Position numbers and translations under genes: made by a program
Shown here: positions 12,863 through 35,371 of the stretch, piece after piece
Layout: each line of letters opens with the position of its first letter
Position numbering within the stretch: position 1 is the first letter of the stretch
Notes under the pieces: generated by a model
Database searches by the model: none
What the model saw: only the letters and a program-made list of their open reading frames with translations
Told to the model about the DNA's origin: nothing
Assembly: GCA_030141605.1 (NCBI GenBank)
Contig: JAQGDQ010001240.1
Location: 1 to 52,961 of the forward strand
Direction: 5' to 3'
Length of the DNA: 52,961 nt
Origin: Tubiluchus corallicola
Lineage: Eukaryota; Animalia; Priapulida

Positions 12863-13034
12863 TTTACCATGTAATATATTATTGTGAAATAAATGTGTTA
12901 GTCGCTCATCAATCCAGATTTTATAGCTTTGTCACCACCTCACGTCAATAAACGGCTGCGGCCTCCTCAATAATCCACCAACAAGTACTACCACTATACG
13001 AAACAGCTCATAAACATAACTCATAAATTTTACT
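12863..13034 (+). mobile_element. 5'-truncated 5' LTR of copy A
   Basis: Matches the last ~170 bp of the family LTR and ends AAATTTTACT. Confidence 0.88.
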
Positions 13035-13051
13035 GGTACTTGTGACCAGTT
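13034..13051 (+). promoter_or_regulatory. Putative primer-binding site
   Basis: TGGTACTTGTGACCAGTT begins on the last LTR base (1-nt overlap as in errantiviruses); cognate tRNA not identified. Confidence 0.6.
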
Positions 13052-13465
13052 CCGATTTTTCTACACGGAGAGAGATTCTAGTAACCTGGCTTCATTGCGT
13101 TTTCACAAACAACGCTAATCCAAGCAAACATGAATAAAGCTGTTTATTGACGTAATTGATCTGCCACACATCTTGACGTCTACAACTTTGTCGTGAGTAC
13201 ATGCACGTTCTTTCTCCACCCTAATATTTTACTTATGTACCTTTCCTGGTTGTGTCAGTGAGTGTAAGAGATAACGGTTGCTTGTATTTTAAAGTCAAGG
13301 AGGGTTGTAGATAAACTCTAACTTGTATATCAAACATTTTGGAGGGTTGTAACTCTAACTTGAATATCAAGATTTTGGAGGGTTGTAAAAATTAATTCTA
13401 TAATGCACTGTAAATTGCGCAGCGCAAATAGATTTCTTAAATTTAATCTCTATTAAACTTTCTCA

Positions 13466-14224
13466 ATGGCGACTAAATCTCCAGCACCTGAAGCTCAGCA
13501 TGTGTCTATTGATACCTATAATGCTTTAGCAAATCAATTTCATGAGTTGAGTCAAAGATGCGAGAATAGTGATAAAATCTTACAAACCCAAGCTGCTCAG
13601 ATTTTAAAACAGGGAGAGAGAATAGGTGATTTGAAACGGGCTAGTGATCAGACCCAATTTTTATGTGAATTGGGCACTCATCTAAAAGACACTAAAGTAC
13701 AACAAACATTAATTCACCAAATTCAACACTTACCGAAATTTTCAGGAGAACCCGGCACTCTCAAATATAGAGATTGGATTGATAATATAGAGCAGTCTCT
13801 AAACTTAACCCCTACATTATTGACATCAAGGGACACCGCCTATAAGCATTTAATTTTGGGCACTTCAACAGGGGCAGCCGCAAACTTTGTGAGTAAATAC
13901 CCAAACCTTGAGACGAGAACAGCACAAGAATTACGAAACGCCCTAAGAGACCTATACGCGGACCGACTAGAAATTAATAAGGCTTTCATTGGATTAACTC
14001 GAGCTAGGCAACAGAAGGGGGAGACCATACAGGCTTTTGGCGACAGGATACTCAAATTAGCAAGAATAGCAAAAACGTCAGAAGATGAAATTGTAGACCC
14101 AGCCTTTCAATCATTTTTGGTACAATTATTTACACTGGGTATACGAGGGGACCAGGTGCGTCAATACTTACTCAGAGAGACCCCCCCCCCGAACCCTAAC
14201 TTTGGCAATTACAGAGGCCGCTAA
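13466..14224 (+). CDS. gag: Ty3/gypsy-type Gag (capsid), C-terminally truncated
   Basis: N-terminal coiled coil; LPKFSGE...WIDNIE; MHR-like QQKGETIQAFGDRI; LFTLGIR; lies downstream of LTR and PBS. Confidence 0.88.
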   Translation: MATKSPAPEAQHVSIDTYNALANQFHELSQRCENSDKILQTQAAQILKQGERIGDLKRASDQTQFLCELGTHLKDTKVQQTLIHQIQHLPKFSGEPGTLKYRDWIDNIEQSLNLTPTLLTSRDTAYKHLILGTSTGAAANFVSKYPNLETRTAQELRNALRDLYADRLEINKAFIGLTRARQQKGETIQAFGDRILKLARIAKTSEDEIVDPAFQSFLVQLFTLGIRGDQVRQYLLRETPPPNPNFGNYRGR

Positions 14225-14275: not shown

Positions 14276-14347
14276 TATATGATCCAATTGTATCGGTGCG
14301 ATTAGCAGCCATCTGGCATTAGAAACTGGAGTATTCAATTTCTGTTT
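14276..14347 (-). pseudogene. Inverted env N-terminal fragment
   Basis: Encodes KQKLNTPVSNARWLLIAPIQLDHI, identical at the protein level to the env frame at 29033-29104. Confidence 0.85.
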
Positions 14348-14978
14348 ATAGCCGTTGGTTTACAGCCAACTTCACCACGCTTTGGAAAGTCCTCCAAATC
14401 TCGTAGGAACTGCCTCAAAGCTAAACTTAATTATCGTGTCAAATCTATCAATCAAATGGCAAATCAGCTTCTACCTGTCGCCGTAAGGATTACAACTCAA
14501 AAGGCACGTCAGCAACACGAATTGCAAACATTACCTTTCGATGACCAGAAAATTCTACTAAAATCTGGCGCTCCAAGTATAATTCTAATTTGGCTAAATA
14601 CATTTGTTAATTTCGTGTCGCTCGCACAAGAAATAGTGCCACAACATCAACTCAGAGATTTCGATGAGTTTACACAATAACTTTATAGAACTGCACAGGC
14701 GATTATGCTAGTTAGGCCAACGCAAGACGAATTGGAAATGTTAACAAATATTTTACTATATGACTCAACTTGCCCTAATTTACAACGACCTGACCGAGTA
14801 GCTAATTTGCATTCCATGTGGATAGAACGATTTAACCATGAGATTCCCCTCACAAACGGCGGCTCTAAGCAATTTCCAGGCTTTGTACCATGCTGTAATT
14901 GCTTTTGCGACCCGACTGCAGTCTTCGCAATTGACCTCAGATCAAAATACTTATTTTCAAGTAAAGGAAGAGAATGAA
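14348..14978 (+). pseudogene. Nuclear receptor remnant (hinge + LBD) in copy A
   Basis: IAVGLQPTSP...MANQLLPVAV...DQKILLK homologous to 32857-33512; CAA>TAA at 14678 and frameshifting deletions near 14850. Confidence 0.88.
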
Positions 14979-15770: not shown

Positions 15771-16244
15771 AGTAAAATTTATAAGCTATGTTTATGAGCT
15801 GTGTCGCGTATAGTGGTAGTACTTGTTGGTGGATTATTGACGAGGCCGCAGCCGTTTATTGACTTTAGGTGGTGACAAAGCTATAAGATCTGGATTGATG
15901 AGCGACTAACACATTTATTTCACAATAACATATTACATGGTAAGATACATATCATAGCTCTGCCAAACCGCCCAAGATCTGTTCCTGCTTCCTCGAGATT
16001 CCCCGTGATCTCATCTCTCATTCCACTTGGCTACCTTCAGCTTTTTGGACTCACAGCGCATGCGTTATAATTGTTGCTAGTCTGACAATTCAGACGGGCA
16101 ATGTCCATATATGGAACTCAGTCACATGACAGCCGCACCTAAAATCATGGCTTCATTTCTACATATCCCTCATATCCCCTTCATAGAGTCGTTTCATTAC
16201 TGAACTACTAATACTAATCATACAATTATCATCTTCTCTTTACT
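15771..16244 (-). mobile_element. 3' LTR of copy B (474 bp), PPT at 16245-16254
   Basis: AGT...ACT termini; GGGAGAAAGG immediately upstream on the minus strand. Confidence 0.92.
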
Positions 16245-17467
16245 CCTTTCTCCCTAGAAGGAAGTTAGTTCCCTCGGGGCTGGCAGATTAGATAATTTTA
16301 ATATTATATCATAATTAAAATATCTAGGCAACCCGAATGTCCTTGTGAGTATGGAGGCACGAGGCTTGCTCGTCCTTATACTAAACTATACATTTATAAC
16401 ATTGATAACAGTAATATGGACATGTGAGGTATACCGGTTACAACTAGTATAGCAAGCAATTTTCCTTATCATGTTATCATCCTTAGTAAGTATAACTAGG
16501 CTAATGAGATATATAAATATTATTAAACACACAGTTGATACATACGTGTAACATTTATCAGAGTTTCTAATATATATATGCAACATATATAAGTAAGCGC
16601 ACAATATACGAGTGTATAGGTCCAATTATGCAGTATACTATCCTAATCGATTTTCTTTATCGTATCAACTATGCTATTGAGATATATAGTTATAGGAGTA
16701 ATTATATGAGTTCAACTGATATCATTTAAAATACCATTCCGAATACAAGTCAAGTCAGGATATAAATCATAAATTTACGTAAATCAAGGCAAAATAGATA
16801 TATATGTCATCAGCTATAAGTCATCAGCTGACAACCTGAATCATCAATCATTATCAAACGATATCAATGACAACCTGAAGCATTAGTCACCGTCATAAAA
16901 TATAAATGACAACCTGCAGGTCATCAATCGCGGTCATCAAAAGTATAAGTGACAACCTGACATCAATAAATCATCCGTCATCCATCACGGTCATAAAAGT
17001 ATAAATGACAATCTGACATCAATGAATCATCAATCATTATACCATATAAATACACACGTCGTGCAAAATCAACATTATACTGTTCAACATTTCATTTCAA
17101 AATATAGGAACACAACATTATTGGATGCATTTCAAAATATAAGTATACAACGTTATTCATCATTTCATAATATACGTACACAATCATCTATTTGACATCC
17201 TATATAAGTACGCACGGTTGTTCAATATTTCATCATTTCATCCATAATATAAGTACACAGTGTCATTCAATATCATTCATTTGACATCATATATAAATAC
17301 ACACGGTTATTCAATATTATTCCTTTAACATCATATTATTCATTGAACACACAATGTTATTCATTTATTCATTGAATCTCCATGTTAAAATTGTATCAAA
17401 ATGATCAAAATGTTGAACGTTATTCTTAAAGTTCAAAATATAAGTATACAGTAATGTTATTCATTTT

Positions 17468-18334
17468 TCATTCATTCTCTTCCTCTGTCTGAAAACAAGT
17501 GTTTTGATCCAAGTTGAGCTGAACAGACTTCAGTCGTGTCGCAAAAGCGATTACTGCTTGATATAAAGCCTGGAAGTTGCTTAAAGCCCCCATTTGCGAG
17601 GTGAATCTAGAAGGCCAGTGAAGTGCTATTTCACAATTAAATCGTTCTATCCACCGAGAGTGAAAATGAGCCACTCGGTCTGGACGTTGTAAATTAAGGC
17701 AAGTTGAGTCATAGAGTAAGATGTTTGTTAAGATTTCCAACTCGTCTTGCGTTGGTCTAACTAGCATAATCGCCTGTGCAGTTCTATAAAGTTGTTGTGT
17801 AAACTCATCGAAATCACTGAGTTGATGTTGCGGCACTAATTCTTGGGCGAGCGACACGAAATTAACAAATGTATTTAGCCAAATTAGAATTATGCTTGGT
17901 ACGCCAGATTTTAGTAGAATTTTCTGGTCTTCGACAGGTAATGTTTGTAATTCGGGTTGTTGGCATGCCTTCTGAATTGTGATTCTTACGGCGACAGGTA
18001 GAAGTTGGTTTGCCATCCGGTTAATAGATTTGACACGATAATTAAGTTTAGCTTTGAGACGATTCTGACGAGATTTAGATGACCTCCCAAAACGAGGTGA
18101 AGTTGGCTGTAAACCAACGGCTATACATTTGTTAAATCTACAAAGTTGACAATGACGTCTGGTGTCTGGGGTAATACGACAATTTCCAACACAGCCACGT
18201 TTAGAACATACATTTTTAACGTGCTGCTTTCTGTAAAAAAAATAGCGGCACGCGTTACACGTTAATTTGCCATAGTGTTTAATGAAAGCTGCTGCAGAAC
18301 AGACTAGGCAGCTTTGTATAACCGTGTCTGACAT
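17468..18334 (-). CDS. Nuclear receptor, 288 aa, intronless (copy B)
   Basis: C4 fingers CLVC..HYGKLTCNAC and C..CRITPDTRRHCQLCRFNKC; LBD signature LPVEDQKILLK; intact ORF. Confidence 0.93.
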   Translation of the reverse strand: MSDTVIQSCLVCSAAAFIKHYGKLTCNACRYFFYRKQHVKNVCSKRGCVGNCRITPDTRRHCQLCRFNKCIAVGLQPTSPRFGRSSKSRQNRLKAKLNYRVKSINRMANQLLPVAVRITIQKACQQPELQTLPVEDQKILLKSGVPSIILIWLNTFVNFVSLAQELVPQHQLSDFDEFTQQLYRTAQAIMLVRPTQDELEILTNILLYDSTCLNLQRPDRVAHFHSRWIERFNCEIALHWPSRFTSQMGALSNFQALYQAVIAFATRLKSVQLNLDQNTCFQTEEENE

Positions 18335-18429
18335 GGCTAAACAATTACACAACGTTTTAAACGTCTTTATAATGTAGCGAAGGCCGAATGTTCTTGCACC
18401 ATCAACATATGTTAGTCTAAGGGTTTCTT

Positions 18430-18888
18430 TTAAATTATATCGTCGACACAAATATGTGGTTCTCCCATTAAGTGTTTAAAATAGTTCTGACAGCGCATAA
18501 AGTCCTGATAATTTATAAAGTCCTGACAATTTATAGTAGGTACAGTTGCTTGATTCACATTTTGCGAAACACGATGTTTAATCATCCTCATTGTTAAATA
18601 TCGATCAAAGTACGGTTTAAAGTTAATTACACTCAACGGATATCTTCTAAAATATTTCGTATGCAGTAATTCTAAGATAATAAACTGAGCTCCTTTATAA
18701 TTTACGAGGTAGTAGGTTTTCCTGAAAGGTGGTTTTTGATATGTGTAAGTTACTAATATTCGAATATTAATAATGTTCGAATATTTAGTTTCATATTTAG
18801 TTTCATTGCACTGGTAAATGAAACGTAGAACGAAGTTATTTTTAATGCTGTTCACCGGAACAAAGTTTTCTTTGATGCTGTTCACCAT
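18430..18888 (-). CDS. Accessory ORF, 152 aa, unknown function
   Basis: ATG-initiated ORF in B; the counterpart from ATG 32109 in C is frameshifted by a ~17-bp indel. Confidence 0.45.
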   Translation of the reverse strand: MVNSIKENFVPVNSIKNNFVLRFIYQCNETKYETKYSNIINIRILVTYTYQKPPFRKTYYLVNYKGAQFIILELLHTKYFRRYPLSVINFKPYFDRYLTMRMIKHRVSQNVNQATVPTINCQDFINYQDFMRCQNYFKHLMGEPHICVDDII

Positions 18889-19287
18889 ATATCAACTAGG
18901 GCTCTGGTTTACACAATTTCACAAAATAGTTGTTCTGTAGTTTACGTAGACTAGTTCTAGAACGATTAGCAAACATTAGCAAAGACAGCTGCAAAGTTTG
19001 TTTACTACTATGATCACTGGCTTGGCTTGGCTGCGTCGCTTGGTGTGTACGATGGATTTCCATGCTGACTTCCGGCGGTCGATAGCTGTCTTGTTGAGAT
19101 GAAGCCGGCTGGCTTCTTGCACGTGCTAGGCAGGGTTTTAAGGTTAAGATAAAAAGGGAAAGAATGATATATGGAAAATAGGTTAAGGTATCCAATCATA
19201 CTCATTATACATTTACTCATATATTATTCAAGGCAACATTTCGATTCTTCATCCCTTTTATTGTTACATTTCAATTCTTCATCCCTT

Positions 19288-19446
19288 TTATTGTTTTCCC
19301 ATCAGTTCACATTTTCTTTCCCAGACTGCAAACAGTATTCCCGTTATTATTATGCAGAATACAAGTAGTGTCAAAAGTACGACTGTAATATACGCGCGAC
19401 GTGATATAACTTCGTCAGTAGGGAGATTAGGCCGTAGCGTATTCAT
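19288..19446 (-). CDS. 52-aa single-pass membrane accessory protein (copy B)
   Basis: TTTTGCAG acceptor followed by cATG; hydrophobic AYITVVLLTLLVFCIIITGILFAVW. Confidence 0.55.
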   Translation of the reverse strand: MNTLRPNLPTDEVISRRAYITVVLLTLLVFCIIITGILFAVWERKCELMGKQ

Positions 19447-19849
19447 GCTGCAAAATGAAATATATTTATACATCACAAATTAGTGTTGAATCAAACATTA
19501 TATAAATTATATGGGAGCGAATTTATGAAAGAACTCGTTTTCCAATAAAGGGCGTTTCACAATAACAAGAAGATCTGGTGGAAACGAAAATTCTGTCTGT
19601 GTCTGTTTAGCACAAACAGTGGGTGACAGTTTAGTTGTAGTAAAAACAATTTTTTCGCTGGGTTGACAGGTCAAGTCAGTCTGTGTGTCTTTGGAAGCAG
19701 CTGTTAACGAGTCTGGGATTGGTGGAAGTGGTGGAAGTTTTTTTTTTGAGGTAATGACTATTATGTTAAAATCACGAGATTGCTAATTCTGCAGTTAAAA
19801 GAAAATTTGTCTCTAGGACTTTTAATAAAGATTTATATTCCTTTTACAG

Positions 19850-20080
19850 GAAGAACTAGTGGTGCTTAAACTGAGCAATATTCATGGGATGCCAGTTATG
19901 GCTAATTTACTGACCAAATACGCGCCCGGCCGGGTCCGCTTTATTAACAGAGAGAATTTCTGTATTTGCACCGCGGCACATGAAATAATAGCAATATGGG
20001 ACCTGGCGCGGATGATGAGAGTAGAGAAACGAAACTGGGAAGAGGGGACGGAAGAAAAATGGCTGGCAGTGAAGTACTAA
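19850..20080 (+). pseudogene. Diverged orphan copy of exon 2 of the antisense accessory gene
   Basis: Homologous to 23381-23611 with the acceptor retained; exon 1 removed by a deletion at ~19740. Confidence 0.75.
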
Positions 20081-20271
20081 GAAAAAGTGGAAAATTAAAA
20101 AAAAAATTTTTTAAAAAAATCCTAAAATTTGAAAAAAAAAGTATTTATCCTTTATGTGGACCTATTATATATAGAAGTATGACTATGCATTAAACTATTT
20201 GTGTTACGGACCAAGAAAAAAAACAACTATTTGTGCAATGGATCTAGTAACCAAAAAAAAACTGTTTGTGT

Positions 20272-22233
20272 TTATGGTGTCATAGGCGGAGTATTGGGTT
20301 TGTTAGAATGGGTACCGCGGGGTGGTTTAGCCTTGGTAGAAGTTGGTTTGGTGTTTATAAGACGGGGGCAACATGCTGTCTTAATTTTCGTACGACAAGT
20401 CACATAAATTATAATAAAGATTATAATAAGTGCTATAAATAAGTATGTTGTCAATGATGCACCCTTATGATTGGAAAAGTCAACCGGTTTGGTTTTGAAT
20501 AATTCATCAGTGTGGTCCAAAAACTTCTGTCGTTTTAATAAGAGATTTTGACTACCTTTAAGAGAAAAGTCAAGTGGTTCATCCTCTGTCATTCGTGACG
20601 GCAGAGCTTGCAGTGTTTGAAGTGTTCCTATCGTAAAATTACTTCCTAATAAATCAACGTTCCAAGTACTTAAATTAAGTGCCGTATCTAAGATTGTTTG
20701 GATGTCCGTTTGAGTTAAAGTAAGGTCTGAATGATTCTTAAAATATATTGGTAAATTTGCATATTTAGAAGATAGGCCACACCCTGATTCTAACTGCAGG
20801 ATCATCGGGTTCTTGATGGTGAGGGGGGTGCCAATCTTATGAGCCTGGCGGGGTACGTAACAAGATTTTATGGCTTGAATTTCAAAACTCGGGCTAATAT
20901 AATAAGTATTCTCAGTTAGAGGTATAATAACTGGTCCAAGTTTATTAATAATTCTTGCTCGTTGATCACAAAATAAATCTATTTTAATAGTGTCCTTGAA
21001 AAACAATGCCGCTGTACATGATTCTATTCTATCTGCAGGAAAAATTGGCGTTGGTGCTAACTTACAGATACGTTTTGGGCTTTGAATACAAGCAAAGGCT
21101 TCATCTTTGGCTGGGAAAAAATATAGTGACTGCTCAATATTCGTAGCAATATACTGATGATCAATTTGGTTATATAGATAAACAGGTTTATTAATATTGG
21201 TTGATGTCCGACGGACTGGGATCGATATTGCTTCAAAAATTTGATAGATGTGATTGACATGATATAAATCTAATGTTGTTAGGATAGCAAACCCTCCGGG
21301 AATTTGAATAGGTAATGCCGACATTGTTTCGTAATAATAGAATAATTGATTATTTATATCGGCTGGAAATATTAGGCTCTGTGGTAGCTGGTCCTCAATT
21401 TGTTTAAGAGACTTTTGAAGGTGTATAGGGGTTATTAAAGTTGGGGGTAATTTATTAAGAATTAGTTGATGTAAACCTTGGGATAACGAATTCAATTCTT
21501 GATCAATGATTTCTAAGCTATAGATAAAGTGATCAAACAGCAAATTTGTTTGCAAGAATGTAAACAATTTATGTTGAGTTTTAGTCAAGTCATCAGTAAA
21601 CTGTTTTGACAGTTTGTTAATGTAATGTCGAGTTTGAACTGATGCGTTCACTAAGTCATAAATTAACTCTGTATTTCTAGCAGAGCGAATTAGCGAGCTA
21701 TTGATAAGGGCTAGGTTATTTTCTAAAATATCTTGCGTGTTTTGTTGCGTATTAAAGATACTCGTAATCTGATCTTGAAGATTTCGAAGATCTTCTTCAC
21801 TCGCGGTTCCGATTAAAAATTTGAATGCCTTTCCTAGATTCGGAAAAATGCTTCGTTTGACGACGTGAGATTCATGGGCAGACGAGGCTATTAAATTCTT
21901 AATGGAATTTAAACGAAATTGTTGATTTCTGATTCTATTTTTAATAGCAGTTTTAAAGGCTTTAATCACTGTGACAGGTTTTTTAATTAATCTTAATTGT
22001 TGAATTTCGGAAAGCGTTCTAGTGAGAAATTCTTGAATGTGGTCCAACTGTATCGGCGCAATAAGTAGCCATCTTGCATTAGAAACTGGAGTATTTAATT
22101 TCTGTTTAAATATAACCCCTGGGCCTGTTTTAAAGGGAGCTGGATTTGGGAATGATTGTAAGGAATTAGAATGTACAGATTTAAGAATATTGCCAATATT
22201 AGGATTTTGTATAAAAGGTTTGTAGTACTGGTC
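20272..22233 (-). CDS. env: Env fusion glycoprotein (errantivirus/baculovirus-F type), copy B
   Basis: Reverse complement of the copy C env; stop codon created at the rearrangement junction (20276). Confidence 0.88.
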   Translation of the reverse strand, partial: DQYYKPFIQNPNIGNILKSVHSNSLQSFPNPAPFKTGPGVIFKQKLNTPVSNARWLLIAPIQLDHIQEFLTRTLSEIQQLRLIKKPVTVIKAFKTAIKNRIRNQQFRLNSIKNLIASSAHESHVVKRSIFPNLGKAFKFLIGTASEEDLRNLQDQITSIFNTQQNTQDILENNLALINSSLIRSARNTELIYDLVNASVQTRHYINKLSKQFTDDLTKTQHKLFTFLQTNLLFDHFIYSLEIIDQELNSLSQGLHQLILNKLPPTLITPIHLQKSLKQIEDQLPQSLIFPADINNQLFYYYETMSALPIQIPGGFAILTTLDLYHVNHIYQIFEAISIPVRRTSTNINKPVYLYNQIDHQYIATNIEQSLYFFPAKDEAFACIQSPKRICKLAPTPIFPADRIESCTAALFFKDTIKIDLFCDQRARIINKLGPVIIPLTENTYYISPSFEIQAIKSCYVPRQAHKIGTPLTIKNPMILQLESGCGLSSKYANLPIYFKNHSDLTLTQTDIQTILDTALNLSTWNVDLLGSNFTIGTLQTLQALPSRMTEDEPLDFSLKGSQNLLLKRQKFLDHTDELFKTKPVDFSNHKGASLTTYLFIALIIIFIIIYVTCRTKIKTACCPRLINTKPTSTKAKPPRGTHSNKPNTPPMTP

Positions 22234-23056
22234 CTGGAAAAAAAATTCAAAAGGAATATTATTCAGGTTGTCCTATACAGATCATTTCTATGACTCTAAA
22301 TTAGTAAGGTTAGAATAAATTTAAGATAAACTTACGTATTTCCTGAAAGTTCCATACTCTTTTTTTTTTCACAAAAATTCAAATTATGAGATGGTGAGAT
22401 TAACATGTATTCACAGCAAAAATTATTAAGATTAATGTGTATTCAAGGCAAAATTATCTTAACGTCTATTCAGAGTCCCTTACTATAAGAAAAATCTGGA
22501 TGAATGGATTTAGTAGGTAACGGACAGTTATTTTAAAGGTGTATCCCTGGCGCATGTGCGCATGCGTAAATAAGTGTGGCTCAATTAACAATCTCGACTT
22601 ATTTGGTGAGTCTTGAAATCCGATCAGCGTTGATCAAAGGGGGGCGAGTGAAGCACGTGTCCACTTGCAATAATTTTGGCCTGGACAGCTAATAGTAAAA
22701 ACAATTCATCTTTCTTCTTAAAGCCAGTTAATGTCCGTGGGAAAAGATTTTGCAGTCCCCTTTCTCAGGATAAGTTGTAGATCAGAATGGTCGTTAAGCT
22801 TCGGTTTTGCGTCTAGGGTTTTCACTATTAGTACTTTTATCGCTTAGTAATGAGCATTGGGGCCCAAACGGAGTCAAATTCTATACGCAGTATACGAAAG
22901 TTCCCAGGCCTCTCACATAAAAGAGACTTGCAGTTGTTGGTCAGTCCCTCTTCGTAATTTCTGTTCGTGTGGTCAAGGCGTCTTAATCAGTTGTGCAAAG
23001 TATTCAGTTTTTTTTCTAGTTTCACCAGTTTTACTAGTTTCAAAATAATAATAAAA

Positions 23057-23611
23057 ATGGAATGTGAAGTACCGAGAGATGCCTACTTATTGGCAGTAGA
23101 GCTCGAAATTACGAGCGGGAACTTTTACGATGTTTTGGATGAACGGGCACAGTTGCATGACCAACTTAGTCGTGCTCTAAAAATGACGTACTTGCCTGGC
23201 ACATGCGAGCTTTTCTGCGGCAAGTCCATCATTGATGGAGTAAGTAATGGTTTTTTTTTTGTTTTGTTTTTTTTTTTTGAGGTAAGGACTATTATGTTAA
23301 AATCACTAGATTGCTAATTCTGCAGTTAAAAGAAAATTTGTCTCGAGGACTTTTAATAAAGATTTATATTCCTTTTACAGGAAGAACTAGTGGTGCTAAA
23401 ACTGAGCAGTATTCATGGGATGCCAGTTATGGCAAATTTACTGACCAAATACGCGCCCGGCCGGGTCCGCTTTATCAACCGAGAGAATTTTTGTATCTGC
23501 ACCGCGGCACATAACATAATAACAATATGGGACCTGGCACGGGTGATGAGAGTATATAAACGCAACTGGGAGGAGGGAACGGAAGAAAGGTGGTTAGCGG
23601 TGAAGTGCTAA
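23057..23611 (+). CDS. Two-exon gene antisense to the element, 137 aa, unknown function (exons 23057-23239, 23381-23611)
   Basis: ATG...GATGGA|GTAAGT and CCTTTTACAG|GAAGAA define a phase-0 intron joining two ORFs; synonymous bias versus 19850-20080. Confidence 0.75.
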
Positions 23612-25470
23612 GAAAAGTGGAAAATTAAAAAAAAATTTAAAAAAAATCCTAAAATTTGAAAAGAAAAAAAAATATTTATCCTTTATGTGGACATATCATA
23701 TATATATAGAAGTGTGACTATGCATTATGGATCAAGGCGGATCGCAAGGAAGGTATGTTTGTATTTAGCATCATAAGTCATTATACAATAATCGAATATT
23801 CGCTGATTAGAGTCTACAAGGAAAATACCTTTTTTTTTCTACTGCATGAAGAATTACTAATTTGGTGATAATACTCTGCGTTGATGAGTCCGCGCGTTCG
23901 GTTTTAACAGACACTTGTCTAGACTATATATAATCTTTTATCATTGTCTAGTGATGCGCGTAATTTGCCGTAATTAACTAGGGGTGAGTTGAATTATAGC
24001 TAAACGTGAGATGGATTATATTTTCTGACAGTTAGTTGGTTTTAACTTTCTCGTAAATGGTCGTTAGAATTTAAAATGTATAAGTTATAAATGGTCATTT
24101 TTATCCGTTTTGAAATGATTGTAGTAATTAAAACTCTAGACTAAAACGTTTGATCAATACATTTATTCAAGTCGGTTATCTGAATTAGAAATTCCGAGTT
24201 TAATCTAGCTATAATCTTAGTTTAATATGTTGGTTATTCGTTCTAGTACTTCAATGGGGCTTGTTGAATAGAAATTCTTTTTATAGAGTAATACAGCGTA
24301 AATGTTCGTTGCTGTGTTAAGTATTTATTTAATTACACTTAGTGATATACCGTAAGATATCCTCCTAATGTCGATAAAACAATATCTAAATACTCTTTTT
24401 GAAATATTCTTTAAAATCGTTACAGCAATACACAATTATTCTGTCAATCATTAGAACGTTGTGCAAATATTCTTGAATCATTTAAGCAATATCCCTCTCT
24501 GGAACTTGTGTAGTTGTTAAGTAAATTTATACGCTACATTATCTGAAGGGAAGCGCATTAAATAAAAGTCTCTGAGTGTCTTTAGGCGTGGTAAGCCCCA
24601 GTGTAAGTTTATGTGACGTTTAGAAGCATAACATTGGGCGTCATTCACGGGGGGCCATTTTATGGGCTAAGACTTTTAGCGCTCATATGGTTCGTTGCCG
24701 TGTATGTACCCAGCATGTATCAGTAGGAATGAAACACGATCTTTATATGGCTTCTAGGAGAGAAGTATTCTTAAAGCTTGGGAATCCTGGGTCGTAAATT
24801 ACGAAAGTGAAAGTCATGAATGAAACACGACGCCTGCGTGGCTCAGCGCGGTTTCTTAGTGAAACTTCTTAAGAGTCCGCGTGTCATAAATTAAGAAAAT
24901 GAAAGTCTGATCGCCTTCTATGTAAAGTCATGAGTGAGGGGGGGGGACGGCTTCATGTTAATGTTCGTAATGTACTTACCGATATATATTCTTGTGGTGT
25001 TAAGTCGTGTCCGGGCTTGAACTGGTACTAAATGTTTTGAACTCATACTAAATGTTTTAATAAAATAGTTGCATGAACAGCCTCGATATGCATAAGCATG
25101 CCGTATGTGACATTTAAACGTCACACACGGGAAATGCTCTCCCGGGAATCGAAAAATGTTCATACTCTAAACACTTTCGTTATACATAAAACTTGTACTT
25201 ACCTTATACATAAAGAAACATGATTGATGACGTTCTCGTCCTTAAAATGGTACTATTCTATTTTATAGCACTAAGGTATTACCTTATAATATAAAAATGC
25301 TTTGATTGTAACAGTAATATTAAACGTTAAAGTATGACCTTATAATACATGGTAACTTTAACTGTAACATTAATATTATTTTAGTTATTGTTTGCAAAAT
25401 TTTCGGCGTAATGTTTTAAAGATGCCTGGTTTTTGCAACTTAATTAAATTAATTCTGGCACGCTTACCAG

Positions 25471-25669: not shown

Positions 25670-27528
25670 CTGGTAAGCGTGCCAGAATTAATTTAATTAA
25701 GTTGCAAAAACCAGGCATCTTTAAAACATTACGCCGAAAATTTTGCAAACAATAACTAAAATAATATTAATGTTACAGTTAAAGTTACCATGTATTATAA
25801 GGTCATACTTTAACGTTTAATATTACTGTTACAATCAAAGCATTTTTATATTATAAGGTAATACCTTAGTGCTATAAAATAGAATAGTACCATTTTAAGG
25901 ACGAGAACGTCATCAATCATGTTTCTTTATGTATAAGGTAAGTACAAGTTTTATGTATAACGAAAGTGTTTAGAGTATGAACATTTTTCGATTCCCGGGA
26001 GAGCATTTCCCGTGTGTGACGTTTAAATGTCACATACGGCATGCTTATGCATATCGAGGCTGTTCATGCAACTATTTTATTAAAACATTTAGTATGAGTT
26101 CAAAACATTTAGTACCAGTTCAAGCCCGGACACGACTTAACACCACAAGAATATATATCGGTAAGTACATTACGAACATTAACATGAAGCCGTCCCCCCC
26201 CCTCACTCATGACTTTACATAGAAGGCGATCAGACTTTCATTTTCTTAATTTATGACACGCGGACTCTTAAGAAGTTTCACTAAGAAACCGCGCTGAGCC
26301 ACGCAGGCGTCGTGTTTCATTCATGACTTTCACTTTCGTAATTTACGACCCAGGATTCCCAAGCTTTAAGAATACTTCTCTCCTAGAAGCCATATAAAGA
26401 TCGTGTTTCATTCCTACTGATACATGCTGGGTACATACACGGCAACGAACCATATGAGCGCTAAAAGTCTTAGCCCATAAAATGGCCCCCCGTGAATGAC
26501 GCCCAATGTTATGCTTCTAAACGTCACATAAACTTACACTGGGGCTTACCACGCCTAAAGACACTCAGAGACTTTTATTTAATGCGCTTCCCTTCAGATA
26601 ATGTAGCGTATAAATTTACTTAACAACTACACAAGTTCCAGAGAGGGATATTGCTTAAATGATTCAAGAATATTTGCACAACGTTCTAATGATTGACAGA
26701 ATAATTGTGTATTGCTGTAACGATTTTAAAGAATATTTCAAAAAGAGTATTTAGATATTGTTTTATCGACATTAGGAGGATATCTTACGGTATATCACTA
26801 AGTGTAATTAAATAAATACTTAACACAGCAACGAACATTTACGCTGTATTACTCTATAAAAAGAATTTCTATTCAACAAGCCCCATTGAAGTACTAGAAC
26901 GAATAACCAACATATTAAACTAAGATTATAGCTAGATTAAACTCGGAATTTCTAATTCAGATAACCGACTTGAATAAATGTATTGATCAAACGTTTTAGT
27001 CTAGAGTTTTAATTACTACAATCATTTCAAAACGGATAAAAATGACCATTTATAACTTATACATTTTAAATTCTAACGACCATTTACGAGAAAGTTAAAA
27101 CCAACTAACTGTCAGAAAATATAATCCATCTCACGTTTAGCTATAATTCAACTCACCCCTAGTTAATTACGGCAAATTACGCGCATCACTAGACAATGAT
27201 AAAAGATTATATATAGTCTAGACAAGTGTCTGTTAAAACCGAACGCGCGGACTCATCAACGCAGAGTATTATCACCAAATTAGTAATTCTTCATGCAGTA
27301 GAAAAAAAAAGGTATTTTCCTTGTAGACTCTAATCAGCGAATATTCGATTATTGTATAATGACTTATGATGCTAAATACAAACATACCTTCCTTGCGATC
27401 CGCCTTGATCCATAATGCATAGTCACACTTCTATATATATATGATATGTCCACATAAAGGATAAATATTTTTTTTTCTTTTCAAATTTTAGGATTTTTTT
27501 TAAATTTTTTTTTAATTTTCCACTTTTC

Positions 27529-28083
27529 TTAGCACTTCACCGCTAACCACCTTTCTTCCGTTCCCTCCTCCCAGTTGCGTTTATATACTCTCATCACCCG
27601 TGCCAGGTCCCATATTGTTATTATGTTATGTGCCGCGGTGCAGATACAAAAATTCTCTCGGTTGATAAAGCGGACCCGGCCGGGCGCGTATTTGGTCAGT
27701 AAATTTGCCATAACTGGCATCCCATGAATACTGCTCAGTTTTAGCACCACTAGTTCTTCCTGTAAAAGGAATATAAATCTTTATTAAAAGTCCTCGAGAC
27801 AAATTTTCTTTTAACTGCAGAATTAGCAATCTAGTGATTTTAACATAATAGTCCTTACCTCAAAAAAAAAAAACAAAACAAAAAAAAAACCATTACTTAC
27901 TCCATCAATGATGGACTTGCCGCAGAAAAGCTCGCATGTGCCAGGCAAGTACGTCATTTTTAGAGCACGACTAAGTTGGTCATGCAACTGTGCCCGTTCA
28001 TCCAAAACATCGTAAAAGTTCCCGCTCGTAATTTCGAGCTCTACTGCCAATAAGTAGGCATCTCTCGGTACTTCACATTCCAT
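27529..28083 (-). CDS. Two-exon antisense gene, 137 aa (exons 28083-27901, 27759-27529)
   Basis: Mirror of 23057-23611. Confidence 0.75.
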
Positions 28084-28784
28084 TTTTATTATTATTTTGA
28101 AACTAGTAAAACTGGTGAAACTAGAAAAAAAACTGAATACTTTGCACAACTGATTAAGACGCCTTGACCACACGAACAGAAATTACGAAGAGGGACTGAC
28201 CAACAACTGCAAGTCTCTTTTATGTGAGAGGCCTGGGAACTTTCGTATACTGCGTATAGAATTTGACTCCGTTTGGGCCCCAATGCTCATTACTAAGCGA
28301 TAAAAGTACTAATAGTGAAAACCCTAGACGCAAAACCGAAGCTTAACGACCATTCTGATCTACAACTTATCCTGAGAAAGGGGACTGCAAAATCTTTTCC
28401 CACGGACATTAACTGGCTTTAAGAAGAAAGATGAATTGTTTTTACTATTAGCTGTCCAGGCCAAAATTATTGCAAGTGGACACGTGCTTCACTCGCCCCC
28501 CTTTGATCAACGCTGATCGGATTTCAAGACTCACCAAATAAGTCGAGATTGTTAATTGAGCCACACTTATTTACGCATGCGCACATGCGCCAGGGATACA
28601 CCTTTAAAATAACTGTCCGTTACCTACTAAATCCATTCATCCAGATTTTTCTTATAGTAAGGGACTCTGAATAGACGTTAAGATAATTTTGCCTTGAATA
28701 CACATTAATCTTAATAATTTTTGCTGTGAATACATGTTAATCTCACCATCTCATAATTTGAATTTTTGTGAAAAAAAAAAGAGT

Positions 28785-28810
28785 ATGGAACTTTCAGGAA
28801 ATACGTAAGT
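28785..28810 (+). promoter_or_regulatory. Putative leader exon end and major splice donor (ATG GAA CTT TCA GGA AAT AC|GTAAGT)
   Basis: Consensus donor 102 nt upstream of a strong acceptor TTTTTTTTCCAG (AG at 28905-28906). Confidence 0.6.
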
Positions 28811-28906
28811 TTATCTTAAATTTATTCTAACCTTACTAATTTAGAGTCATAGAAATGATCTGTATAGGACAACCTGAATAATATTCCTTTTGAATTTTTT
28901 TTCCAG

Positions 28907-30877
28907 GACCAGTACTACAAACCTTTTATACAAAATCCTAATATTGGCAATATTCTTAAATCTGTACATTCTAATTCCTTACAATCATTCCCAAATCCAG
29001 CTCCCTTTAAAACAGGCCCAGGGGTTATATTTAAACAGAAATTAAATACTCCAGTTTCTAATGCAAGATGGCTACTTATTGCGCCGATACAGTTGGACCA
29101 CATTCAAGAATTTCTCACTAGAACGCTTTCCGAAATTCAACAATTAAGATTAATTAAAAAACCTGTCACAGTGATTAAAGCCTTTAAAACTGCTATTAAA
29201 AATAGAATCAGAAATCAACAATTTCGTTTAAATTCCATTAAGAATTTAATAGCCTCGTCTGCCCATGAATCTCACGTCGTCAAACGAAGCATTTTTCCGA
29301 ATCTAGGAAAGGCATTCAAATTTTTAATCGGAACCGCGAGTGAAGAAGATCTTCGAAATCTTCAAGATCAGATTACGAGTATCTTTAATACGCAACAAAA
29401 CACGCAAGATATTTTAGAAAATAACCTAGCCCTTATCAATAGCTCGCTAATTCGCTCTGCTAGAAATACAGAGTTAATTTATGACTTAGTGAACGCATCA
29501 GTTCAAACTCGACATTACATTAACAAACTGTCAAAACAGTTTACTGATGACTTGACTAAAACTCAACATAAATTGTTTACATTCTTGCAAACAAATTTGC
29601 TGTTTGATCACTTTATCTATAGCTTAGAAATCATTGATCAAGAATTGAATTCGTTATCCCAAGGTTTACATCAACTAATTCTTAATAAATTACCCCCAAC
29701 TTTAATAACCCCTATACACCTTCAAAAGTCTCTTAAACAAATTGAGGACCAGCTACCACAGAGCCTAATATTTCCAGCCGATATAAATAATCAATTATTC
29801 TATTATTACGAAACAATGTCGGCATTACCTATTCAAATTCCCGGAGGGTTTGCTATCCTAACAACATTAGATTTATATCATGTCAATCACATCTATCAAA
29901 TTTTTGAAGCAATATCGATCCCAGTCCGTCGGACATCAACCAATATTAATAAACCTGTTTATCTATATAACCAAATTGATCATCAGTATATTGCTACGAA
30001 TATTGAGCAGTCACTATATTTTTTCCCAGCCAAAGATGAAGCCTTTGCTTGTATTCAAAGCCCAAAACGTATCTGTAAGTTAGCACCAACGCCAATTTTT
30101 CCTGCAGATAGAATAGAATCATGTACAGCGGCATTGTTTTTCAAGGACACTATTAAAATAGATTTATTTTGTGATCAACGAGCAAGAATTATTAATAAAC
30201 TTGGACCAGTTATTATACCTCTAACTGAGAATACTTATTATATTAGCCCGAGTTTTGAAATTCAAGCCATAAAATCTTGTTACGTACCCCGCCAGGCTCA
30301 TAAGATTGGCACCCCCCTCACCATCAAGAACCCGATGATCCTGCAGTTAGAATCAGGGTGTGGCCTATCTTCTAAATATGCAAATTTACCAATATATTTT
30401 AAGAATCATTCAGACCTTACTTTAACTCAAACGGACATCCAAACAATCTTAGATACGGCACTTAATTTAAGTACTTGGAACGTTGATTTATTAGGAAGTA
30501 ATTTTACGATAGGAACACTTCAAACACTGCAAGCTCTGCCGTCACGAATGACAGAGGATGAACCACTTGACTTTTCTCTTAAAGGTAGTCAAAATCTCTT
30601 ATTAAAACGACAGAAGTTTTTGGACCACACTGATGAATTATTCAAAACCAAACCGGTTGACTTTTCCAATCATAAGGGTGCATCATTGACAACATACTTA
30701 TTTATAGCACTTATTATAATCTTTATTATAATTTATGTGACTTGTCGTACGAAAATTAAGACAGCATGTTGCCCCCGTCTTATAAACACCAAACCAACTT
30801 CTACCAAGGCTAAACCACCCCGCGGTACCCATTCTAACAAACCCAATACTCCGCCTATGACACCCCTAACCCAATGA
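28907..30877 (+). CDS. env: Env class I fusion glycoprotein (errantivirus/baculovirus-F type), copy C
   Basis: Frame open from the acceptor (656 codons). GVIF..W motif; VVKR/SIFPNLGKAFKFLIGTASEED cleavage site and fusion peptide; heptad region; LPPTLITP..L...L..I...LP; Cys cluster; C-terminal TM YLFIALIIIFIIIYV. Confidence 0.9.
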   Translation, partial: DQYYKPFIQNPNIGNILKSVHSNSLQSFPNPAPFKTGPGVIFKQKLNTPVSNARWLLIAPIQLDHIQEFLTRTLSEIQQLRLIKKPVTVIKAFKTAIKNRIRNQQFRLNSIKNLIASSAHESHVVKRSIFPNLGKAFKFLIGTASEEDLRNLQDQITSIFNTQQNTQDILENNLALINSSLIRSARNTELIYDLVNASVQTRHYINKLSKQFTDDLTKTQHKLFTFLQTNLLFDHFIYSLEIIDQELNSLSQGLHQLILNKLPPTLITPIHLQKSLKQIEDQLPQSLIFPADINNQLFYYYETMSALPIQIPGGFAILTTLDLYHVNHIYQIFEAISIPVRRTSTNINKPVYLYNQIDHQYIATNIEQSLYFFPAKDEAFACIQSPKRICKLAPTPIFPADRIESCTAALFFKDTIKIDLFCDQRARIINKLGPVIIPLTENTYYISPSFEIQAIKSCYVPRQAHKIGTPLTIKNPMILQLESGCGLSSKYANLPIYFKNHSDLTLTQTDIQTILDTALNLSTWNVDLLGSNFTIGTLQTLQALPSRMTEDEPLDFSLKGSQNLLLKRQKFLDHTDELFKTKPVDFSNHKGASLTTYLFIALIIIFIIIYVTCRTKIKTACCPRLINTKPTSTKAKPPRGTHSNKPNTPPMTPLTQ

Positions 30878-31048
30878 CCCGTAATAGACTTCCTCAATAC
30901 CAGCCTCCCAAGGAATTTATCAAAAAACCCGAACCACGGGAACCAATTGTTCGTTATAACCCAAATAACGATTCTGTTGATTTCGTATATCCGTCTTTAC
31001 ATTCCATTCAAGAACAGTAAAACTTCGTTTATTTCTTTTATTCTATAG

Positions 31049-31520
31049 TTTTACCCACGAGGCCGAAGATCACCTTTCGAAAATAGATGACAGCATAGAT
31101 AAATTTCTACAAGAACTTAACGAAACCTACGAAGTCAATTATAACTTGATTCGTAACCTTTCAACACCTGAGACACCCCAAACGCCCCAATCCAACTCCA
31201 CCTATGAGAATACTGAACAAATTATGCCTTTAACCTTTTCCCTCGCACCAGACACTCCGTTATCTCCCCAGGAAATATATCACTTTTTAAAATCACCACT
31301 TCCACCAATCCCAGACTCGTTAACAGCTGCTTCCAAAGACACACAGACTGACTTGACTTGTCAACCCAGCGAAAAAATTGTTTTTACTACAACTAAACTG
31401 TCACCCACTGTTTGTACTAAACAGACACAGACAGAATTTTCGTTTCCACCAGATCTTCTTGTTATTGTGAAACGCCCTTTATCGGAAAACGAGTTCTTTC
31501 ATAAATTCGCTCCCATATAA
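31049..31520 (+). CDS. Pro/Thr-rich accessory ORF exon (163 aa if spliced to the leader exon)
   Basis: Acceptor TTTTATTCTATAG (AG at 31047-31048); no ATG at its start; in frame with the phase-2 leader. Confidence 0.5.
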
Positions 31521-31580
31521 TTTATATAAAGTTTGATTCAACGCTAATTTGTGATGTATAGATATGTTTCATTTTGCAGC

Positions 31581-31739
31581 ATGAATACGCTACGATCTAA
31601 CCCCCCTACCGACGAAGTTATATCACGTCGCGCGTATATTACAGTCGTACTTTTGACACTACTTGTATTCTGCATAATAATAACGGGAATACTGTTTGCA
31701 GTCTGGGAAAGAAAATGTGAACTGCTGGGAAAACAATAA
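31581..31739 (+). CDS. 52-aa single-pass membrane accessory protein (copy C)
   Basis: Acceptor TTTTGCAG|cATG; TM helix; conserved in copy B. Confidence 0.55.
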   Translation: MNTLRSNPPTDEVISRRAYITVVLLTLLVFCIIITGILFAVWERKCELLGKQ

Positions 31740-32645
31740 AAGGGATGAAGAATTGAAATGTTGCCTTGAATAATATATGAGTAATTGTATAATGAGTATG
31801 ATTGGATACCTTAACCTATTTTCCATATATCATTCTTTCCTTTTTTACCTTAACCTTAAAACCCTGCCTAGCACGTGCAAGAAGCCAGCCGGCTTCATCT
31901 CAACAAGACAGCTATCGACCGCCGGAAGTCAGCACGGAAATCCATCGTACACACCGAGCGACGCAGCCAAGCCAAGCCAGTGATCATAGTAGTACACAAA
32001 CTTTGCAGCTGTCTTTGCTAATGTTTGCTAATCGCTCTAGAACTAGTCTACGTAAACTACAGAACAACTATTTTGTGAAATTGTGTAAACCAGAGCCCTA
32101 GTTGATATATGGTGAACAGCATCAAAGAAAACTTTGTTCCGGTGAACAGCATTAAAAATAACTTCGTTCTACGTTTCATTTACCAGTGCAATGAAACTAA
32201 ATATGAAACTAAATATTCGAGTATTAGCAACTTACACATATCAAAAACCACCTTTCAGGAAAACCTACTACCTCGTAAATTATAAAGGAGCTCAGTTTAT
32301 TATCTTAGAATTACTACATACGAAATATTTTAGAAGATATCCGTTGAGTGTAATTAACTTTAAACCGTACTTTGATCGATATTTAACAATGAGGATGATT
32401 AAACATCGTGTTTCGCAAAATGTGAATCAAGCAACTGTACCTACTATAAATTGTCAGGACTTTATAAATTGTCAGGACTTTATGCGCTGTCAGAACTATT
32501 TTAAACACTTAATGGGAGAACCACATATTTGTGTCGACGATATAATTTAAAAGAAACCTTTAGACTAACATATGTTGATGGTGCAAGAACATTCGGCCTT
32601 CGCTACATTATAAAGACGTTTAAAACGTTGTGTAATTGTTTAGCC

Positions 32646-33512
32646 ATGTCAGACACGGTTATACAAAGCTGCCTAGTCTGTTCTGCAGCAGCTTTCATTA
32701 AACACTATGGCAAATTAACGTGTAACGCGTGCCGCTATTTTTTTTACAGAAAGCAGCACGTTAAAAATGTATGTTCTAAACGTGGCTGTGTTGGAAATTG
32801 TCGTATTACCCCAGACACCAGACGTCATTGTCAACTTTGTAGATTTAACAAATGTATAGCCGTTGGTTTACAGCCAACTTCACCTCGTTTTGGGAGGTCA
32901 TCTAAATCTCGTCAGAATCGTCTCAAAGCTAAACTTAATTATCGGGTCAAATCTATTAACCGGATGGCAAACCAACTTCTACCTGTCGCCGTAAGAATCA
33001 CAATTCAGAAGGCATGCCAACAACCCGAATTACAAACATTACCTGTCGAAGACCAGAAAATTCTACTAAAATCTGGCGCTCCAAGTATAATTCTAATTTG
33101 GCTAAATACACTTATTAATTTCGTGTCGCTTGCCCAAGAATTAGTGCCGCAACATCAACTCAGTGATTTCGATGAGTTTACACAACAACTTTATAGAACT
33201 GCACAGGCGATCATGCTAGTTAGACCAACGCAAGACGAGTTGGAAATCTTAACAAACATCTTACTCTATGACTCAACTTGCCTTAATTTACAACGTCCAG
33301 ACCGAGTGGCTCATTTTCACTCTCGGTGGATAGAACGATTTAATTGTGAAATAGCACTTCACTGGCCTTCTAGATTCACCTCGCAAATGGGGGCTTTAAG
33401 CAACTTCCAGGCTTTATATCAAGCAGTAATCGCTTTTGCGACACGACTGAAGTCTGTCCAGCTCACCTTAGATCAAAACACTTGTTTTCAGACAGAGGAA
33501 GAGAATGAATGA
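32646..33512 (+). CDS. Nuclear receptor, 288 aa, intronless (copy C)
   Basis: Two C4 zinc fingers; LBD motifs PELQTLPVEDQKILLK, ELEILTNILLYD and PSRF; start GCCATG directly after TTGTTTAG. Confidence 0.93.
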   Translation: MSDTVIQSCLVCSAAAFIKHYGKLTCNACRYFFYRKQHVKNVCSKRGCVGNCRITPDTRRHCQLCRFNKCIAVGLQPTSPRFGRSSKSRQNRLKAKLNYRVKSINRMANQLLPVAVRITIQKACQQPELQTLPVEDQKILLKSGAPSIILIWLNTLINFVSLAQELVPQHQLSDFDEFTQQLYRTAQAIMLVRPTQDELEILTNILLYDSTCLNLQRPDRVAHFHSRWIERFNCEIALHWPSRFTSQMGALSNFQALYQAVIAFATRLKSVQLTLDQNTCFQTEEENE

Positions 33513-34810
33513 AAAATGAATAACATTACTGTATACTTATATTTTGAACTTTATGAAAAATGAATAACATTACTGTATACTTATATTTTGAACTTTAAGA
33601 ATAATGTTCAACATTTTGATCATTTTGATACAATTTTAACATGGAGATTCAATGAATAAATGAATAACATTGTGTGTTCAATGAATAATATGATGTTAAA
33701 GGAATAATATTGAATAACCGTGTGTATTCATATATGATGTCAAATGAAAGATATTGAATGACACTGTGTACTTATATTATGGATGAAATGATGTCAAATG
33801 AATGATTGTGTATGTATATTATGAAATGATGAATAACGTTGTATACTTATATTTTGAAATGCGTCCAATAATGTTGTGTTCCTGTATTTTGAAATGAAAT
33901 GTTGGATAGTATAATGTTGATTTTGCACGACGTGTGTATTTATATTGTATAATGATTGATGATTCATCGATGTCAGATTGTCATTTATACTTTTATGACC
34001 GTGATGGATGACGGATGATTTATTGATGCAGGTTGTCACTTATACTTTTGATGACCGCGATTGATGACCTGCAGATTGTCACTTATATTTTATGACGGTG
34101 ACTAATGATTCAGATTGTCACTTATATTTTATGACGGTGATTGACGACTCAAGTGACGACTCAGGTTGTCATTGATATCGTTTGATAATGATTGATGATT
34201 CAGGTTGTCAGCTGATGACTTATAGCTGATGACATATATATATCTATTTTGCCTTGATTTACGTAAATTTATATCCTGACTTGACTTGTATTCGGAATGG
34301 TATTTTAAATGGTATCAGTTGAACTCATATAATTACTCCTATAACTATATATCTCAATAGCATAGTTGATACGATAAAGAAAATCGATTAGGATAGTATA
34401 CTGCATGATTGGACCTATACACTCGTATATTGTGCGCTTATTTATATAGTTTGCATATATATATTAGAAACTTTGATAAATGTTACACGTATGTATCAAC
34501 TGTGTGTTTAATAATATTTGTATATCTCATTAGCCTAGTTATACTTACTAAGGATGATAACATGATAAGGAAAATTGCTTGCTATACTAGATTTAACCGG
34601 TATACCTCACATGTCCATATTACTGTTATCAATGTTGTAAATGTATAGTTTAGTATAAGGACGAGCAAGCCTCGTGCCTCCTTACTCACAAGGACATTCG
34701 GATTGCCTAGATATTTTAATTAGATATTTTAAATCAGATATTTTACTTAGATATTTTAACTGGATATTTTACTCACATATTTTAAAAATCAGATATCTTA
34801 AATCACATAT
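33513..34810 (+). repeat. Repeat-rich 3' UTR of the element
   Basis: Degenerate units such as GTGTACTTATATTTTGAAATG, CAG(G/A)TTGTCACTTATATTTTATGACGGTGATTGATGA and AGATATTTTAA. Confidence 0.7.
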
Positions 34811-34898
34811 TGGTCATGTATTTTAGACAGATGATATAATATTAAAATTATCTAATCTGCCAGCCCCGAGGGAACTAACTTCCTTTTAGGAAGAGAGG

Positions 34899-35371
34899 AG
34901 TAAAGAGAAGATGATAATTGTATGATTAGTATTAGCAGTTCAGAAATGAAACGACTCTATGAAGGGGATATGAGAGATATGTAGAAATGAAGCCATGATT
35001 TTAGGTGCGGCTGTCATGTGACTGAGTTCCATATATGGACATTGCCCGTCTGAATTGTCAGACTAGCAACAATTATAACGCATGCGCTGTGAGTCCAAAA
35101 AGCTGAAGGAAGCCAAGTGGAATGGGAGATCAGATCACGGGGGAATCTCGAGGAAGCAGGAACAGATCTTGGGCGGTTTGGCAGAGCTATGATATGTATT
35201 TTACCATGTAATATATTACTGTGAAATAAATGTGTTAGTCGCTCATCAATCCAGATCTTATAGCTTTGTCACCACCTCACGTCAATAAACGGCTGCGGCC
35301 TCCTCAATAATCCACCAACAAGTACTACCACTATACGACACAGCTCATAAACATAGCATATAAATTTTACT
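34899..35371 (+). mobile_element. 3' LTR of copy C (473 bp), PPT at 34888-34898
   Basis: AGGAAGAGAGG|AGTAAAG...TTTTACT; contains AATAAA. Confidence 0.93.

Follow-up and report, generated by a model that had tools for sequence, protein, structure and literature searches.

A predicted spliced antisense gene under purifying selection beside the env gene of an invertebrate LTR retroelement

Can an LTR retroelement keep a protein-coding gene that contains an intron, and what would such a gene do for it? The question is raised by a 52,961-nt contig of the priapulid Tubiluchus corallicola (hereafter the window, i.e., the whole stretch of DNA that was analysed), in which an antisense two-exon frame of 137 aa runs on the minus strand from 28083 to 27529, head-to-head with an F-type env gene. 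Our overall reading, to which we assign a probability of about 0.75, is that of an antisense gene of the element, likely transcribed from an internal promoter and spliced, and likely concerned with regulation of the element itself.

The antisense frame and selection on its exons

The preliminary description of this DNA had claimed a 137-aa ORF in two exons with GTAAGT and TTTTACAG splice sites, a structure that turned out to be exact to the coordinate.

27901..28083, minus strand: exon 1, 61 codons from the ATG at 28083
27760..27900, minus strand: predicted phase-0 intron of 141 nt (GTAAGT...TTTTACAG, GT-AG) with 4 in-frame stops
27529..27759, minus strand: exon 2, 76 codons plus TAA at 27531-27529
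27511..27516, minus strand: candidate poly(A) signal ATTAAA, 13 nt past the stop, by pattern only

The intron length is a multiple of three, but its four stops make read-through impossible. GC content is 46-48% in the exons vs 25% in the intron, and a comparable two-exon frame occurred in 0 of 1000 doublet shuffles of 25670-28784, a test whose length thresholds were chosen with the gene already known. A gene-model scan of the real sequence returned two models, the second of which probably uses an in-frame donor-like site at ~27858. Splicing as drawn, at 27901/27759, is very probable on the predicted sites; among the joints listed for the DNA contigs aligned over 26800-29200 and 27745-28125, which can attest the presence of an intron-skipping joint rather than its absence, none skips the intron. 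Downstream, more candidate poly(A) signals, again by pattern only, lie at 27013, 26583, and 26081.

The 12 synonymous and 7 non-synonymous codon differences, and the conserved stop, that had been reported between exon 2 and a second window copy of it at 19850-20080 were recovered exactly. By the Nei-Gojobori method, the two sequences show 14 differences over 52.2 synonymous sites and 9 over 175.8 non-synonymous sites, i.e., a dN/dS of 0.16 (binomial p 1e-4; p 0.0017 with an 8-fold transition bias); dN/dS in the five remaining frames lies at 0.42-1.65. Additional copies were surveyed in public runs, of which six were listed, four of them containing this DNA and none recorded as RNA; four were aligned on 26800-29200 and three, representing two samples, on 27745-28125. 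One run presumed to be RNA yielded 0 aligned contigs, which has no bearing on expression. This latter stretch of 381 nt aligned to 31, 28, and 12 contigs that range from near-identical to less than 90% alike, a mixture of identities that indicates a multi-copy family, with depth giving no copy number. Its 33 substitution rows are distributed among exon 1 (30), the intron (2), and the upstream sequence (1). Synonymous changes make up 24 of the 30 rows in exon 1, with 6 non-synonymous (pN/pS 0.07; p 4e-11, or 5e-8 with transition bias); because the rows are unphased and some contigs contribute more than one of them, the number of independent events is below 30 and the p values are optimistic. 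When the same substitutions are read in the plus-strand frame that has third positions in common with the gene, 21 of 30 are synonymous, and in the other four frames 2-5.

Insertions and deletions follow the same boundaries. The 10 indel rows over 27745-28125 fall in the intron (5), in the 5' flank (4), and in a base run at the start codon (1), where the ATG is left whole; none of the 10 breaks the coding frame. Over 26800-29200, no indel lies inside an exon among the 12 listed of 38 rows. Four exon-2 rows listed from the runs repeat differences already seen in the second window copy, three of them non-synonymous. Purifying selection acts on both exons, and that on exon 1 across copies, with its synonymous excess and no frame-breaking indel among the rows listed, is the new observation of this work. 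The dN/dS in exon 2 and the pN/pS from unphased rows in exon 1 bear out the earlier proposal of a functional accessory gene, for which our searches found no family, and we regard the gene as almost certainly real and under selection.

The host element and its copies in the window

That the gene lies inside a retroelement had likewise been proposed, and this holds: it is antisense to an LTR element with an LTR, a polypurine tract (PPT), and PBS-like ends. The order PPT-LTR and LTR-PBS fixes the orientation of the gene relative to the element.

28785..30877, plus strand: F-type env, with a short ATG exon (28785-28804), a predicted sense intron (28805-28906), and a long frame
30981..31520, plus strand: ORF after env with no family; acceptor-like site at 31048; one match at E 0.06, far under the cut-off
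31581..31739, plus strand: 52-aa ORF after an acceptor-like site, with one hydrophobic segment
32191..32550, plus strand: unassigned 119-aa ORF
32646..33512, plus strand: nuclear-receptor (NR) ORF that combines C4 zinc fingers with a degenerate, ligand-binding-like region
34888..35371, plus strand: PPT and 3' LTR (LTR 34899-35371, 473 nt, AGTAAA...TTTACT)
20276..25470, minus strand: exact inverted duplicate of 25670-30864 (5195 nt, 0 mismatches), across a 199-N gap
15771..20275, minus strand: internally deleted copy, running from the 3' flank, exon 2 (19850-20080), and most of the intron into the ORF-NR-LTR block
12863..14224, plus strand: another deleted copy, with an LTR end at 13035, a TGG-starting PBS-like site at 13036, and a gag-like ORF at 13466-14224

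The env assignment draws on a match to Baculo_F over residues 99-641 (E 9e-5; 21.7 bits, below the curated cut-off of 24.1), on one relative of 24% identity that carries PF12259, and on a basic cleavage-like site and a C-terminal hydrophobic segment visible in the sequence. Removal of the canonical predicted sense intron (102 nt) would join the 20-nt ATG exon to a frame that leads into a signal-peptide-like stretch; among the joints listed for the DNA contigs, none removes this intron. A frameshift near the 5' end of env in the window copy is absent from most of the aligned depth in two runs. The only env relative found in metagenomes is an intact 746-codon F-type env-like frame (762-3002), 23% identical to this env, on a 3.5-kb contig; this contig, with 761 nt preceding the frame, matches neither exon of the antisense gene.

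Beyond env, the NR ORF matches zf-C4 (E 6e-14) and PDB entries. The receptor and the type of env both point to an animal host. Compared with two other copies, it has dN/dS values of 0.17 and 0.14 (7/4 and 37/21 synonymous/non-synonymous differences) and, judging by these codon changes, is under purifying selection; further NR copies were noted at 17468-18334 (minus strand) and 14348-14845 (plus strand). The three small sense ORFs differ between copies by 3, 6, and 4 changes, too few to judge selection. Our literature search found no NR ORF in an LTR retrotransposon; v-erbA is a retroviral analogue. Short tandem repeats with units of 13-57 nt occupy 33509-34811, between the NR ORF and the LTR, and the 15 bases after the 3' LTR (35372-35386) equal the first 15 of the env leader intron (28805-28819), with no longer match.

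Further LTR copies start at 11956, 12863, and 15771. The deleted copy at 12863 continues into an env fragment and an NR fragment; an inverted env fragment of 72 nt (14277-14348, 87.5% identical) joins its gag-like ORF to the latter. This ORF of 252 codons sits in the gag position and presumably holds capsid-like motifs, and it has no capsid match in Pfam, NCBIfam, or the PDB. A search of 11000-37000 for RT and integrase motifs came up empty, and the sequence stops at the 199-N gap, 1.86 kb past the stop of the antisense gene. With pol outside the window, the family of the element is unproven and the location of the gene after pol is presumed. A DNA virus, suggested by introns on both strands, was dropped given the LTR, PPT, and PBS-like ends. 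Rfam returned nothing over 25670-35500. Near the window end, 49147-52961 contains CA-rich repeats and a 525-nt inverted repeat.

The window copies differ in what they say about the gene. The inverted duplicate is probably one locus assembled twice, which its sequence identity suggests and which the presence of the env frameshift in both arms fits; the identical gene copy within it (23057-23611) is thus no independent evidence. The deleted copy at 15771-20275 lacks exon 1 and env, its intron being joined to the downstream block at an A-run, and since it connects exon 2 with the NR-LTR block it links gene and element independently. Its divergence from the gene is 3/102 in the intron and 1-4% elsewhere vs 23/231 in exon 2, where 20 of the 23 differences are concentrated in the last 141 bases (p 0.007; 19738-20192 vs 27413-27871). 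On its simplest reading, exon 2 at 19850-20080 would be a tract recombined from a more distant subfamily. The selection signal stands; the preliminary view of this sequence as a diverged exon 2 is to be amended to that of a probable mosaic tract within a deleted copy.

This evidence also allows alternative accounts of the exons and of their place in the element to be weighed. Both exons could code within a different mRNA, through the donor at ~27858, which would add 14 codons, or through further upstream exons. The two models of the scan and the second in-frame GTAAG in the intron would agree with this, as would the donor at 28534 and the acceptor at 28121 upstream, but the additional codons cross T homopolymers, the donor-like site reads GTAAT in the deleted copy, and the 37 nt from the upstream acceptor to the start contain no ATG, so that any exon further upstream would in all likelihood be non-coding; we judge such a message quite unlikely. 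It is very unlikely that the gene lies outside the retroelement, as a host gene or a separate DNA element beside env with an ordinary intron. The lack of a pol or RT motif in the window, the gap so close to the gene, and a gag call without library support speak for that account; against it are the deleted copy, which carries exon 2 in the same orientation next to the ORF-NR-LTR block, overlapping contig pieces that cross from exon 1 into the spacer, and the retroelement termini. Extremely improbable, finally, is an origin of the synonymous excess in selection on a plus-strand frame, in an RNA signal, or in CpG decay. The plus-strand frame with common third positions does lean synonymous (dN/dS 0.42 in exon 2, besides its score in exon 1), but in both exons the minus frame leans further that way, and the plus frame over exon 2 is open for only 64 codons. 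CpG decay is no explanation, with CpG transitions accounting for 2 of the 23 exon-2 differences and 5 of 28 exon-1 variant places lying in CpG, and folding of the intron is unremarkable (z +1.15). An element-borne gene whose message joins the two exons at the predicted junction is the account developed below.

Candidate promoter, predicted protein, and possible function

The antisense ATG lies 6.8 kb from the 3' LTR and 702 nt from the start codon of env.

28084..28784, no strand assigned: head-to-head spacer of 701 nt between the antisense gene and env, a candidate two-way promoter

The spacer contains no TATA consensus; it does contain a GCATGCGC motif at 28575, which we take to be NRF-1-like, and a candidate minus-strand 5' UTR intron (28534-28121, motifs only). 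We lean toward the view that this spacer may drive both the antisense gene and the spliced env message. The conserved reverse-strand frame would then be transcribed from an internal promoter, likely common with env, to yield a soluble protein of 137 residues. The RNA packaged by the element would be the plus strand, from LTR to LTR, and the antisense intron would be copied into every new insertion; lying backwards in this RNA, it would never be spliced before reverse transcription and would persist for that reason. With high confidence, we would attribute the persistence of the intron to its antisense position relative to the packaged RNA. The preliminary statement that antisense introns escape splicing from genomic RNA and survive reverse transcription agrees with what is described for lentiviral globin vectors, which use the same principle (PMC6775231).

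The protein itself belongs to no named family. All sequence and structure searches were run with each exon alone, which is less sensitive than a search with the whole chain. Among 1.84 billion representatives, exon 2 had no homologue at E <=0.001; in a separate search neither of 2 candidates for exon 2 held, and none of 18 candidates placed exon 1 within a longer protein. Against PDB sequences, exon 1 had no match and exon 2 one, at E 1.4; neither exon matched Pfam (E up to 10) or NCBIfam, PHROGs gave three weak matches (E 0.035-0.27), and viral contigs matched neither exon 1 nor env. A phage match was rejected as chance, since it covers 27 residues inside an unrelated low-complexity ORF. Exon 1 encodes an acidic part (pI 4.4) and exon 2 a basic one (pI 9.0), neither of which has a hydrophobic segment long enough to span a membrane (maximum hydropathy over 19 residues, 0.84 and 1.45) or, by inspection, a long arginine-rich RNA-binding stretch.

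Single-sequence structure models were poor (pLDDT 47.9 for exon 2 and 47.1 for exon 1). With the exon-2 model at that pLDDT of 48, the best Foldseek match has an E of 0.34, and structural matches are mostly to small alpha/beta-plait folds, the best at Z 6.6, within the range of chance. Third in rank among these comes 4DJB, a polymer of viral origin by which tumour suppressors are inactivated and which we take to be adenovirus E4-ORF3 (Z 6.0, rmsd 2.9, 76 residues aligned). Atlas reported WD40-like features in exon 2 (0.94), with 131-156 of 256 features in common, where 170 is typical of true family members; its best score for exon 1, 0.84, is a lead at most. No WD40 match exists in Pfam at E up to 10, and by eye the 137 aa hold at most one blade-like motif. 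These fold and Atlas matches are leads, not assignments.

What the protein does can be argued from two sides. The full-length RNA must keep the env sense intron, so the element probably needs a factor comparable to CERV of the Caenorhabditis elegans element Cer1, which is translated from a spliced Cer1 mRNA, has 517 aa with segments in common with GAG, and is required for export of unspliced RNA (PMC10309623). A small soluble protein from the same promoter region would be a fair candidate for this factor; it might be a small alpha/beta nucleic-acid-binding protein that balances full-length RNA against env and accessory RNA. For the internal promoter, a model is offered by Tor3b/4b of Oikopleura, where an internal promoter drives a sense, unspliced env (PMC4402516); both Tor and CERV serve here as models by their published description. 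Our tentative prediction, held at somewhat less than even odds, is that the protein regulates the RNA or the transcription of its own element, in a role similar to that of Rev and CERV or of GENE23. The same gene could instead do another job, its protein blocking host defence (silencing, innate sensing, or the ubiquitin pathway). The resemblance of the exon-2 model to small alpha/beta-plait folds, 4DJB included, and the WD40-like features would suit such a role, but the model is of low confidence, Z values below 8 are common by chance, and the Atlas feature count and the Pfam result both fall short of a WD40 assignment, so we hold this role to be rather unlikely. A bolder scheme would make the element a "complex" invertebrate retrovirus with env, an NR, a small membrane protein, two orphan ORFs, and an antisense intron gene, in which a two-way promoter couples env to a new alpha/beta-plait protein for anti-silencing or RNA export and subfamilies exchange the gene by recombination; as a whole it is improbable. 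Self-regulation from an internal promoter remains our preferred reading.

Relation to known antisense genes and env-bearing elements

Antisense extra genes are in themselves of a known kind, with examples in HTLV and in the Gypsy elements of plants and fungi. Those of plants and Botrytis have been reviewed (PMC7264820, PMC11963269), and in plant Ty3/Gypsy elements the antisense ORFs between pol and the 3' LTR, termed aORF-3R, include Grande gene23, RIRE2, and Retand TRP28 (PMC7264820, PMC11963269); gene23 is served by a promoter of its own, and its product is nuclear (PMC7264820). The gene described here is similarly an antisense coding gene in the 3' internal region (its place after pol being presumed), kept in many copies, with a regulator role proposed, and its element has tandem repeats near the 3' LTR, as has plant Retand. 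Unlike aORF-3R, it resides head-to-head with env in an animal-type element with F-type env, and it has a predicted intron, a word that appears in neither PMC7264820 nor PMC11963269, the former of which calls for a search for spliced antisense transcripts. Retand TRP28 differs further in its PF04195 domain, since neither exon here, scanned separately at E up to 10, matches this or any other Pfam family. The brtn gene of Botrytis Boty elements is an additional antisense gene in a Gypsy element (Zhao 2011, cited in PMC8365987); it belongs to a fungal element and is likened to the window gene by title only.

Spliced antisense genes are established in deltaretroviruses, namely HTLV-1 HBZ and HTLV-2 APH-2, and HBZ is driven by the 3' LTR and encodes a bZIP protein (PMC10186651). 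HBZ had been named at the outset as a precedent, which is apt insofar as both are antisense protein-coding genes of retroelements, spliced in the viruses and predicted to be so here. The comparison is otherwise loose, given that the ATG of the present gene lies beside the spacer rather than near the 3' LTR and that its product has no bZIP match in Pfam and, by inspection, no leucine heptad. The plant aORF-3R genes and fungal brtn are closer precedents.

Among animal elements, a close comparison is with the F-env "ancient errantiviruses", described in a metazoan survey that set an upper limit of 1000 nt on the distance from pol to env (PMC13524379). In common with them, the present element has LTRs, an env resembling glycoprotein F, several copies, and a genome of invertebrate type as its host; unlike in them, its env is preceded by no less than 3.1 kb in which pol is absent and is followed by four additional ORFs, a layout that the 1000-nt limit would pass over. 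The main text of the survey mentions neither antisense genes nor nuclear receptors. In the literature outside subscription papers, we found no title or opening of an abstract that describes an antisense gene with an intron next to the env of an invertebrate element, and no published case of an antisense gene placed between pol and F-type env in animals, though the supplements of PMC13524379 could list relatives.

Published accounts treat env-bearing invertebrate retrotransposons as simple elements of gag, pol, and env, and elements with a long gap between pol and env were removed by the filter of the largest survey. The element reported here carries several selected accessory genes, one of them antisense and predicted to be spliced. 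If other elements share this pattern, complex retroviruses of invertebrates may form a class that has been missed, together with its unnamed proteins for regulation or against host defence. In an antisense slot, a gene with an intron could be retained by a retroelement, which would be a natural version of the reverse-cassette design of lentiviral vectors.

Other accounts of extra ORFs touch the locus more distantly. Rotifer elements carry sense extra ORFs (PMC5408684), and PMC12786077 and PMC8220671 provide general statements only. The sORF2 cell-fusion proteins are 63-107 aa long with an MG start (PMC11952523), and the 52-aa ORF at 31581-31739 loosely resembles them, being shorter and without the MG start.
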